Of a stretch of 64,000 nucleotides of DNA, positions 11,316 through 14,006 are shown one piece after another. Numbering within the stretch: the stretch's first letter is position 1; every line of letters starts with the position of its first letter. A program made the position numbers. The stretch lies in the NCBI RefSeq assembly GCF_058153355.1, contig NZ_CM177019.1. One strand, 5' to 3'.

Positions 11316-14006
11316 TGAATAATCGAGTCCACCAGGGCCACTTAGCCCGTAAACGCTTCGGGCAAAACTTTCTTAACGATCAGTTCGTGATCGACAGCAT
11401 TGTTTCTGCCATTAACCCGCAGAAGGGCCAGGCGATGGTCGAAATCGGCCCCGGTCTGGCGGCATTGACCGAACCGGTCGGCGAACGCCTGGACCAGCTG
11501 ACGGTCATCGAACTTGACCGCGATCTGGCGGCACGTCTGCAAACGCATCCATTCTTAGGCCCGAAACTGACTATTTATCAGCAGGATGCGATGACCTTTA
11601 ACTTTGGCGAACTGGCTACGAAAATGGGCCAGCCGCTGCGTGTTTTCGGCAACCTGCCTTATAACATCTCCACGCCGTTGATGTTCCATCTGTTTAGCTA
11701 TACTGATGCCATTGCCGACATGCACTTTATGTTGCAAAAAGAGGTGGTGAATCGTCTGGTTGCAGGACCGAACAGCAAGGCGTATGGTCGATTAAGCGTC
11801 ATGGCGCAATACTATTGCAACGTGATCCCGGTGCTGGAAGTACCGCCGTCAGCCTTTACACCACCACCCAAAGTGGATTCCGCCGTCGTGCGCCTGGTTC
11901 CTCATGCAACGATGCCTCACCCGGTTAAAGATGTTCGCGTGTTGAGCCGCATCACCACCGAAGCCTTTAACCAGCGTCGTAAAACCATTCGTAACAGCCT
12001 CGGCAACCTGTTTAGCATCGAGGTGTTAACCGGAATGGGGATCGACCCGGCGATGCGAGCGGAAAATATCTCTGTCGCGCAATATTGCCAGATGGCGAAC
12101 TATCTGGCGGAGAACGCGCCTTTGCAGGAGAGTTAACGATGATCAATTCGCCCCGAGTGTGTATTCAGGTTCAAAGCGTCTACATTGAGGCACAATCTTC
12201 ACCTGATAATGAACGTTACGTTTTTGCTTATACCGTAACCATACGCAATCTGGGGCGAGCGCCAGTGCAGTTGTTGGGGCGTTACTGGCTGATCACCAAT
12301 GGCAATGGCCGTGAAACCGAAGTCCAGGGCGAAGGAGTGGTTGGCGTCCAGCCACTTATCGCGCCTGGCGAAGAGTACCAGTACACCAGCGGTGCAATCA
12401 TTGAAACCCCGCTGGGCACCATGCAGGGTCACTACGAAATGATCGATGAAAATGGCATCCCTTTCAGCATCGACATTCCCGTATTCCGACTCGCCGTTCC
12501 CACACTCATTCATTAAAAGAATATGGCGACATACCTTATTGGCGACGTTCATGGTTGTTACGATGAACTGATCGCATTGCTGCATAAAGTAGAATTTACC
12601 CCTGGGAAAGACACCCTCTGGCTGACAGGCGATCTGGTCGCGCGCGGCCCTGGTTCGCTGGATGTTCTGCGCTATGTGAAATCCTTAGGCGACAGCGTAC
12701 GTCTGGTGCTGGGCAATCACGATCTGCATCTGCTGGCGGTATTTGCCGGGATCAGCCGCAATAAACCGAAAGATCGCCTGACACCGCTGCTGGAAGCGCC
12801 GGATGCCGACGAGCTGCTTAACTGGCTGCGTCGCCAGCCTCTGCTGCAAATCGACGAAGAGAAAAAGTTGGTGATGGCCCACGCCGGGATCACGCCGCAG
12901 TGGGATCTGCAGACTGCCAAAGAGTGCGCGCGCGATGTAGAAGCGGTGCTGTCGAGCGACTCCTACCCCTTCTTCCTTGATGCCATGTACGGCGATATGC
13001 CAAATAACTGGTCACCGGAATTGCGGGGGCTGGGAAGACTGCGGTTTATCACCAACGCCTTTACCCGTATGCGCTTTTGCTTCCCGAACGGTCAACTGGA
13101 TATGTACAGCAAAGAATCGCCGGAAGAAGCCCCTGCCCCACTGAAACCGTGGTTTGCGATTCCTGGCCCCGTCGCTGAAGAGTACAGCATCGCCTTTGGT
13201 CACTGGGCATCGCTGGAGGGCAAAGGTACGCCGGAAGGTATTTACGCGCTGGATACCGGCTGTTGCTGGGGCGGTTCATTAACCTGCCTGCGCTGGGAAG
13301 ATAAACAGTATTTTGTCCAGCCGTCGAACCGGCATAAGGATTTGGGCGAAGGAGAGGCGGTCGCGTCTTAAATCCCGTCGAGCATAAAATCTAATGCTCC
13401 TTTAATCAAAGTTCGGTGCGCGCTGGCATCGCAAAATTTCGTTCCCAGCGTGTTAACTGGAACAGTTGCAGTCTCATGCGTCATGAGCACATATTCTTTG
13501 CCGTCTGCCAGTAAAAGGATTGGGTTAAGCCGTTCTGGTGGGCGAATATGGCTAAATCGTTCAATAGGTGTTAATGGAATAACGATACGGCGATTAATCT
13601 CACCAATAATGTCGCTGGTAACATCGATAACAAAGGGAAACGCGGCGTTCCTGCCGCGACTGCGGTATACCGTAAATTGCATCGCTAGAAGCTCCGGTAC
13701 TCATCAGAGAAACATCCGGTTTCATCAGCCAATTGATTTAACGCAGCAATAGCTTCTGCGTTCTCTTCACGCCAACGTGTTGCTGCATGTTTTTTAAGTT
13801 CAGCATTGAGCGCAACCGTAAGGGTGGCGCTCATATTTAAGCCTGCATCACGAGCGCGATTGACTAACTCACGGTCGACGGTGACGGTCACACTTTGTGT
13901 GGTACGTTTTGCAGTCATGATATCGTGCTCCTGTACAATTTATACGTCTAGTATACACGGATATCTGCACATATCAGTGATGCCGGAATTCTAATATACA
14001 AACTTA

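Follow-up and report, generated by a model that had tools for sequence, protein, structure and literature searches.

Among the described ccd toxin-antitoxin systems, the one closest to the locus reported here is ccdO157, the chromosomal pair of Wilbaux 2007 and Mine 2009. In reviews (PMC7167474, PMC3184786, PMC7232551 and PMC2654758), this pair is described as an islet in the plastic folA-apaH intergenic region. The review PMC5543033 describes its toxin as targeting gyrase, with a lower toxicity and a roughly 5-fold lower gyrase affinity than the CcdB of the F plasmid, and its antitoxin as labile to Lon; action on gyrase, the hallmarks of which are relief of toxicity by GyrA R462C and trapping of the cleavage complex, is also reported for the O157 homologue in the review PMC10886550. 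In the F system, the operator is built around GTATAC palindromes, which are bound by CcdA-CcdB chains (PMC5389731). The structure of a further chromosomal CcdB, that of V. fischeri, has been solved with the toxin bound to GyrA fragments (PMC10886550).

The literature of 2007-2009 already covers the islet and where it is located, as well as the gyrase target, the cross-talk with the F ccd system and the decay in E. coli, and both genes are routinely annotated by PGAP. Here, a copy of this islet found in a non-O157 backbone was compared with these systems and with its counterparts in other Escherichia genomes and in plasmids.

The ccd pair at the folA-apaH junction

The window, i.e. the whole stretch of DNA that was analysed, comprises 64,000 nucleotides of contig NZ_CM177019.1 (assembly GCF_058153355.1). 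The original prediction, made from the sequence of this window, placed a ccdA-ccdB pair at 13368-13918, between folA and apaH. These coordinates were recovered exactly in the ORF list, and the two products matched the CcdA and CcdB families of Pfam over their full length. The features of the region are collected in Table 1.

Table 1. Features of the ccdAB islet and its borders (window positions)
Feature	Position	Strand	Description
apaH	12523..13371	+	Flanking core gene, convergent with ccdB
GGAGAG indel	13351..13356	+	6 bp, close to the apaH 3' end; ApaH of 282 aa here, 280 aa in K-12
ccdB	13368..13682	-	Intact ATG ORF, 104 aa; CcdB-family toxin, predicted gyrase poison
Non-K-12 DNA (islet)	13373..13994		About 622 bp; replaces the REP-containing spacer of K-12 (three-way alignment of window, EDL933 and K-12)
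ccdA	13685..13918	-	ATG ORF, 77 aa; CcdA-family antitoxin
CcdA protein layout			DNA-binding N-terminal part; toxin-binding C-terminal tail, ending ...ETGCFSDEYRSF
folA-ccdA spacer	13919..14003	-	85 bp; putative promoter/operator
Shine-Dalgarno AGGAG	13932-13928	-	Ahead of ccdA
TGTACA	13932-13937		Follows GTATAA
GTATAA	13945-13940	-	11 nt after GTATAC
Palindrome GTATAC	13951-13956		Perfect; overlaps the -10
Putative -10 TATACT	13955-13950	-	Sigma-70-like, CTGATA-16-TATACT, weak
Putative -35 CTGATA	13977-13972	-	Promoter scan, 9/12 match
folA	14004..14483	-	Flanking core gene, upstream of ccdAB and on the same strand

The arrangement is that of a type II toxin-antitoxin operon: both genes are small, tightly spaced and on one strand, with the antitoxin gene directly ahead of the toxin gene (the ORF list gives 2 nt from the ccdA stop to the ccdB ATG), and both starts are preceded by GGAG. 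At the other end of the pair, the stop codons of apaH (13369-13371) and ccdB (13368-13370, opposite strand) are interlocked in TCTTAAA. The two convergent genes share positions 13368-13371, which corresponds to the overlap of 4 nt initially predicted.

It had also been stated that K-12 has no gene between folA and apaH, and in MG1655 this gap indeed contains only a 77-bp REP-like spacer. The three-way alignment showed that the ccdB stop codon sits within sequence common to the end of the K-12 apaH gene. The longer ApaH (282 aa) was found in EDL933, strain S3 and E. albertii, and the shorter one (280 aa) in K-12, O104:H4 and CFIAFB20190167; the GGAGAG indel accompanies the islet, or a remnant of it, in every ccd-type locus examined. 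At this step, it was confirmed that the ccdAB pair at folA-apaH is real, intact and correctly placed, well past chance.

The original prediction had pointed out that a chromosomal ccd pair is described at this position for O157:H7, which agrees with the reviews PMC7167474, PMC3184786 and PMC7232551, and had regarded the pair as a known system rather than a new one. In the RefSeq annotation of O157:H7 EDL933, both genes occupy this position, and the two loci have in common the folA-ccdA-ccdB-apaH order, the junctions, the 4-nt overlap with apaH and the 282-aa ApaH. Nucleotide identity reached 98.0% across the 761 bp spanning the islet. The window CcdA is 100% identical to that of EDL933 (WP_000125566.1), and the window CcdB is 95% identical to its EDL933 counterpart, from which it differs at 5 of 104 residues (G10S, E28V, H45R, A59V and T78A, window to EDL933). 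In contrast, the host backbone of the window is not O157, with 97.3% identity to EDL933 over 3.7 kb.

Three residues separate the window CcdB from the common E2348/69-type allele, and its H45 and T78 are shared with an E. fergusonii variant. The public databases already contain exactly this CcdB allele on 72 contigs, under a 'MULTISPECIES ... [Escherichia]' name, and the loci in which it recurs have flanks that differ by 0.7-1.9%; the exact CcdA sequence occurs on at least 1000 contigs. We consider it highly probable (about 90%) that the window contains, in intact form, the type II operon already known from chromosomes as the ccdO157 type, with folA, ccdA and ccdB following one another in the direction of the convergent apaH.

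Family membership and putative operator

When compared with Pfam, CcdB matched PF01845 with an E-value of 6e-31 and 107.1 bits (cut-off 28.6), residues 2-103 covering positions 1-101 of the 101-position profile, and CcdA matched PF07362 with an E-value of 1e-26 and 93.1 bits (cut-off 22.4), residues 8-77 covering positions 2-71 of 71. Sequence matches to solved structures in the PDB were obtained with V. fischeri CcdB (1.5e-16), F CcdB (7e-11) and F CcdA (9e-6). The CcdB homology on which the original prediction depended is therefore a real one.

The F-type equivalog models of NCBIfam have cut-offs of 147 bits for CcdB (NF010262) and 100 bits for CcdA (NF010264). The window proteins scored 60.5 and 38.6 bits, respectively, far under these cut-offs, and the F-type proteins of pO157 scored 214.6 and 163.7 bits. 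Since the scores of the window pair lie under the equivalog cut-offs, it belongs to a subfamily other than the F-type and includes no F-type orthologue. Compared with the F-plasmid ccdAB genes, including the pO157 copy, the pair has the same Pfam families, the same gene order and a similar gap of 1-2 nt, and its toxin has in common with F CcdB the conserved Q2-F3, Y6, SDII, VIPL and C-terminal G-I residues. However, the window locus is chromosomal, and the F proteins are only 36-37% (CcdB) and 29% (CcdA) identical to those of the window.

The best match among solved structures was the chromosomal CcdB of V. fischeri (PDB 3JSC, 4ELY and 4ELZ), which was aligned over its full length. Both proteins contain an IPLTPIE segment and a D-F-x-x-x-G-I C-terminus, and neither has a Trp at the position equivalent to residue 99 of F CcdB. 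Nevertheless, the V. fischeri protein, which comes from another genus and another genomic context, is only 37% identical to that of the window.

The original prediction named a lack of the conserved C-terminal gyrase-interacting residues, together with a lack of toxicity, as evidence against it. In F numbering, the residues in contact with gyrase are Trp99-Gly100-Ile101; Gly and Ile are retained, and Trp99 is replaced by Asp102. The same Asp is present in the plasmid relatives and in the EDL933 toxin, that is, in the O157 toxin reported to target gyrase, and V. fischeri CcdB has a Thr. Since the O157 toxin and the plasmid relatives have Asp, and the GyrA-bound V. fischeri CcdB has Thr, Trp99 does not seem to define the family, and its replacement is not decisive against the prediction; according to PMC7232551, the effect of replacing it by Asp is not established. 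Elsewhere in the protein, all 19 columns that are invariant in six diverse CcdBs are retained, including Q2, F3, Y6, S23-D24, V-I-P-L and the terminal G-I, and none of the allele-specific residues (10, 28, 45, 59 and 78) falls on these columns.

From homology and from the literature, CcdB is expected to bind the GyrA dimer near Arg462 and to trap gyrase, with a potency attenuated relative to F CcdB. CcdA would wrap its disordered C-terminal tail round CcdB, which would neutralise the toxin, and would itself be degraded by Lon. Chains of CcdA and CcdB would then repress the operon through the phased GTATAC-like palindromes overlapping the -10.

As regards the operator, the GTATAC-N5-GTAT core ahead of ccdA aligns with the F-type ccd operator GTATAC-ccgaa-GTATGT located upstream of pO157 ccdA, which is a further feature in common with F ccdAB. 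The window spacer (85 bp) is shorter than the F operator, which extends over 113 bp and contains eight sites. Promoter-like sites were not in excess in the region (3 against 2.3 in shuffled sequences). Since GTATAC, too, is no more frequent in the window than expected (6 found against 7.8), it is only the position and the 11-nt phasing that point to an operator here. As judged from the sequence, the phased GTATAC-like palindromes at the putative promoter match an autoregulated ccd operon and support a ratio-dependent autorepression.

At the other border of the islet, no terminator was found between ccdB and apaH or downstream of ccdB, the terminator-like matches all being located inside ccdB. 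The local hairpin at the apaH/ccdB overlap was no better than in shuffled sequences (z = -0.70), and no Rfam family was detected within the islet. As apaH and ccdB converge and overlap without a terminator, it may be speculated that read-through from the rsmA-apaG-apaH operon modulates ccdB expression by antisense transcription.

Distribution and probable exchange of the islet, and decay of its toxin gene

The original prediction regarded the pair as a strain marker of the O157:H7 lineage. With a match coverage of 80% or more of the islet query as the threshold, the islet was present in 2021 of the 5426 complete E. coli genomes (37%), among them O127:H6 and APEC O2 strains (APEC O2-211), and missing from the other 63%. 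Furthermore, with an exact 25-nt probe over the apaH/ccdB junction, the islet was detected in two more species representatives. One is the type strain of E. albertii; the other, recorded as E. coli, has an identity of no more than about 94% to the window. The islet lies at the identical junction in both this divergent (about 6%) Escherichia and E. albertii. Given this distribution and the 97.3% identity of the window to EDL933, the islet is not a marker of O157 and should not serve as one. The prevalence of 37% in current complete genomes is a small addition to the published work, and so is the finding of one and the same junction in E. albertii and the divergent Escherichia lineage.

Among the complete RefSeq E. 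coli genomes, none was at least 99% identical to the window over a 10-kb stretch, and the best full-length match to a 13-kb stretch was 98.5%. Strain 2020CK-00188, which matched the ccd neighbourhood at 100%, is not the same genome as the window, being only 96.8-98.8% identical to it elsewhere; with respect to this strain, the window contains extra DNA of 13 kb, 6 kb, 1.5 kb and 1.4 kb.

In each of the three comparisons, the islet showed about a quarter to half of the synonymous divergence measured in the flanking genes, another small addition to what was known. With E. albertii, 12 of 124 synonymous sites differed in the islet against 97 of 305 in the flanks (Fisher p = 7e-7); p values of 4e-3 and 2e-3 were obtained for the other two comparisons. 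This lower synonymous divergence suggests that the islet was exchanged among Escherichia lineages more recently than the flanks diverged. The islet is nonetheless old, given its nucleotide divergence of 4-6% between species. Purely vertical descent from an Escherichia ancestor, which the identical junction in E. albertii could evoke, was rejected as the whole story, because dS is 0.10 in the islet, roughly a quarter of the values in the flanks (0.37-0.44; p = 7e-7).

In order to follow the fate of the two genes, 12 other E. coli loci were compared with the window: nine evenly stepped down the similarity ranking, the top match of this ranking, and two from an exact look-up of the window CcdB protein. 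The ccdA gene was intact in all 12, whereas ccdB was disrupted in five, by a 13-bp deletion (two loci), a +1 frameshift (one locus) or the nonsense mutation G95* (two loci), which removes the C-terminal helix. The SNPs segregating among the 13 sequences were 12 non-synonymous and 8 synonymous in ccdB, and 2 and 2 in ccdA. Pairwise dN/dS values of ccdB relative to the window were 0.78 (EDL933), 0.52 (E. albertii) and 0.30 (divergent Escherichia). For ccdA, values of 0.12 and 0.07 were obtained in the two inter-species comparisons, without any non-synonymous change relative to EDL933, and for the flanking apaH and folA genes they were 0-0.04.

Further lesions were also observed. The E. albertii ccdB has lost its start codon, which reads ATA, and the ccdA gene of this species is frameshifted by a 1-nt deletion. 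In strain S3, a DUF4291 gene and an unknown ORF replace ccdB and most of ccdA, leaving a 45-aa CcdA stub. According to the summaries of Mine 2009 in PMC3920263 and PMC2654758, the chromosomal toxin evolves neutrally and decays. Our data independently reproduce this published picture of toxin decay with retention of the antitoxin. Under such relaxed selection, a given allele may be non-toxic, and since the toxin gene evolves almost neutrally, the toxicity of any particular ccdB allele should not be taken for granted.

These observations raise the question of whether the module is also dead, or dying, in the window, its CcdB having lost its toxicity by substitutions and the pair being a neutral remnant kept by drift. 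The near-neutral dN/dS of ccdB relative to EDL933 and E. albertii, the obvious ccdB lesions in five of the 12 other loci, the lost start codon and frameshifted ccdA of E. albertii, and the neutral evolution attributed to Mine 2009 all go in this direction. However, the ccdB ORF of the window is intact and of full length, with the family-invariant positions and the DF(M/L)LDGI C-terminus common to the plasmid relatives, and the recurrence of the exact allele on 72 contigs, with flanks differing by 0.7-1.9%, indicates that it is not a private degenerate copy. For this locus, functional death is a possibility that we regard as rather unlikely.

Another explanation would be that the pair acts as a stress or persistence module. 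In this scheme, Lon would degrade CcdA under stress, and the attenuated CcdB would reversibly slow growth and give rise to more drug-tolerant persisters. The reviews PMC5543033, PMC11059956 and PMC10886550 credit Gupta 2017 with the finding that the O157 ccd operon raises persister formation, and the attenuated toxicity and gyrase affinity of CcdB-O157 mentioned above fit this scheme. A beneficial role predicts purifying selection on ccdB, whereas the gene is near-neutral and often broken; moreover, most E. coli genomes do without the islet, and the links between toxin-antitoxin systems and persistence are debated (PMC7167474). A persistence function was considered unlikely. Across the population, the behaviour of the module is that of a selfish or near-neutral islet, with a patchy distribution, exchange between Escherichia lineages, a decaying toxin gene and a conserved antitoxin.

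Plasmid relatives and protection against plasmid-borne ccd

The closest plasmid-borne relatives of the window pair are found on Hafnia alvei plasmid NZ_CP015380 (74% identity for CcdB and 66% for CcdA, the last 12 CcdA residues being identical) and on IncFII plasmid NZ_CP110893 of Citrobacter (60% and 62%, with two differences in these 12 residues). Small IncFII plasmids of Citrobacter, Salmonella and Enterobacter encode CcdBs about 60% identical to that of the window. The members of this DF(M/L)LDGI plasmid subfamily have the same CcdB C-terminal motif as the window, the same or nearly the same CcdA C-terminal ETGCFSDEYRSF and a gene spacing of 2-3 nt. Unlike the window pair, they are not located at folA-apaH but on plasmids, beside replication genes in the IncFII case. 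That plasmid-borne relatives are much closer than F is also a small addition to the literature.

A recent plasmid origin of the islet was rejected, since no true plasmid carries the window CcdB at more than 74% identity. A 'plasmid' match of 96% corresponded to an 834-kb record which also carries apaH and is hence chromosomal DNA.

The original prediction saw in the pair a potential plasmid anti-addiction module, in which the chromosomal CcdA neutralises plasmid CcdB and the cells survive the loss of a ccd plasmid. The concept has been demonstrated for the Erwinia chrysanthemi ccd system against F (PMC2654758), and CcdA is conserved while ccdB decays. As far as F is concerned, the literature is mostly negative. 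In four reviews of Wilbaux 2007 (PMC5543033, PMC7354431, PMC3920263 and PMC10305079), the cross-talk is one-way: F CcdA neutralises the chromosomal toxin, but the chromosomal CcdA does not neutralise F CcdB, and ccdF is functional beside it on pO157. PMC2654758 and PMC5543033 add that the chromosomal system confers no plasmid stabilisation, and post-segregational killing is reported to be absent. Only the review PMC10886550 states the contrary, crediting O157 CcdA with protection against F CcdB. The protein of Wilbaux 2007, encoded also by EDL933, has the same sequence as the window CcdA, and the F proteins are distant from those of the window (36% identity for CcdB, 29% for CcdA). Protection against F-type ccd is not to be expected from the islet, and an anti-F-plasmid role should not be assumed for this locus.

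Anti-addiction in general was judged quite improbable. In a narrower form of the proposal, the conservation of CcdA in front of a decaying ccdB would be explained if the antitoxin were an antidote to its own DF(M/L)LDGI plasmid subfamily (Hafnia, Klebsiella, Citrobacter, Salmonella and Enterobacter) and not to F, an explanation that we hold to be just as doubtful. The existence of plasmid pairs of this subfamily, with CcdBs 60-74% identical to that of the window and with CcdA ends identical (Hafnia) or differing at two residues (Citrobacter), is consistent with it. If the islet had any anti-addiction role, sequence similarity would make the plasmids of the DF(M/L)LDGI subfamily its plausible targets.

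The folA-apaH locus in other Escherichia

When the interval between folA and apaH was examined in other genomes, a third state of the locus was observed in E. coli strain S3 (comparison locus L018, 1597-2935). In this strain, a DUF4291 gene (E=5e-68) and a 155-aa ORF, for which no Pfam match was obtained, take the place of ccdB and of most of ccdA. A 45-aa CcdA remnant nevertheless persists next to folA, and ApaH is still of the 282-aa form.

The ccd islet was also found at the identical apaH junction in two other Escherichia species representatives: E. albertii NBRC 107761 (L022, 4196-4745) and SCPM-O-B-8794 (L023), a record labelled E. 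coli but belonging to a lineage about 94% identical. The E. albertii islet is decayed, the ccdB start codon being changed from ATG to ATA and ccdA carrying a 1-nt deletion; that of SCPM-O-B-8794 is intact. In every comparison, synonymous divergence (dS) was lower in the islet than in the flanking apaH and folA genes, and in the E. albertii comparison it was about a quarter of the flank value.

Relationship of the window to complete genomes

Among complete RefSeq E. coli genomes, a 10-kb stretch of the window gave no match of at least 99%, and the top full-length match to a 13-kb stretch reached 98.5%. In strain 2020CK-00188, an identity of 99.3% was confined to the 6.7 kb surrounding ccd, as opposed to 96.8-98.8% outside this neighbourhood. 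Taken together, the lack of a close complete match and the restriction of the 2020CK-00188 similarity to the ccd region suggest that the window (1-64000) is mosaic or comes from an under-sampled lineage.

The 13-kb cai/fix/yaaU block is carried by both the window and K-12. It is absent from 2020CK-00188, the ccd region of which is identical to that of the window, and a small gene for a YgdI/YgdR lipoprotein is found at the site instead.

Other features of the window

Features identified in the window
Feature	Position	Strand	Remarks
Pentapeptide-repeat ORF	4525-5271	-	weak
cai/fix/yaaU block	17165-30308		between carB and kefF
ES003 sRNA	34734-34786	-	
Pentapeptide-repeat ORF	43991-45463	+	weak
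Fimbrial cluster	45707-48531		between rpsT and nhaR
Fimbrial chaperone	46291-46608, 46563-46973		two ORFs
Fimbrial usher	46986-47333, 47302-48531		two short ORFs
Tandem duplication	51617-51824, 51825-52032		exact, 208 nt
IS110-family transposase ORF	52114-53289		Pfam DEDD_Tnp_IS110, Transposase_20
Cysteine-rich ORF	53651-54931	-	426 aa
sok antitoxin RNA	57765-57917	+	Rfam RF01794, 120 bits
tpke11	59302-59379	-	

A tandem duplication and an IS110-family insertion lie side by side at 51617-53554, the duplication directly abutting the insertion (about 1.5 kb, with the transposase gene), which 2020CK-00188 lacks. The adjoining cysteine-rich ORF had no Pfam match and is annotated as 'hypothetical protein' in a related genome.

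The split fimbrial chaperone and usher are probably pseudogenes. As for the pentapeptide-repeat ORFs, the first lies within a 1.4-kb rluA-djlA segment missing from 2020CK-00188, and the second is annotated as 'type III effector' in matching E. coli genomes. Finally, the sok match marks a type I toxin-antitoxin locus of the hok/sok type near dnaJ, and the window thus contains a second toxin-antitoxin system.
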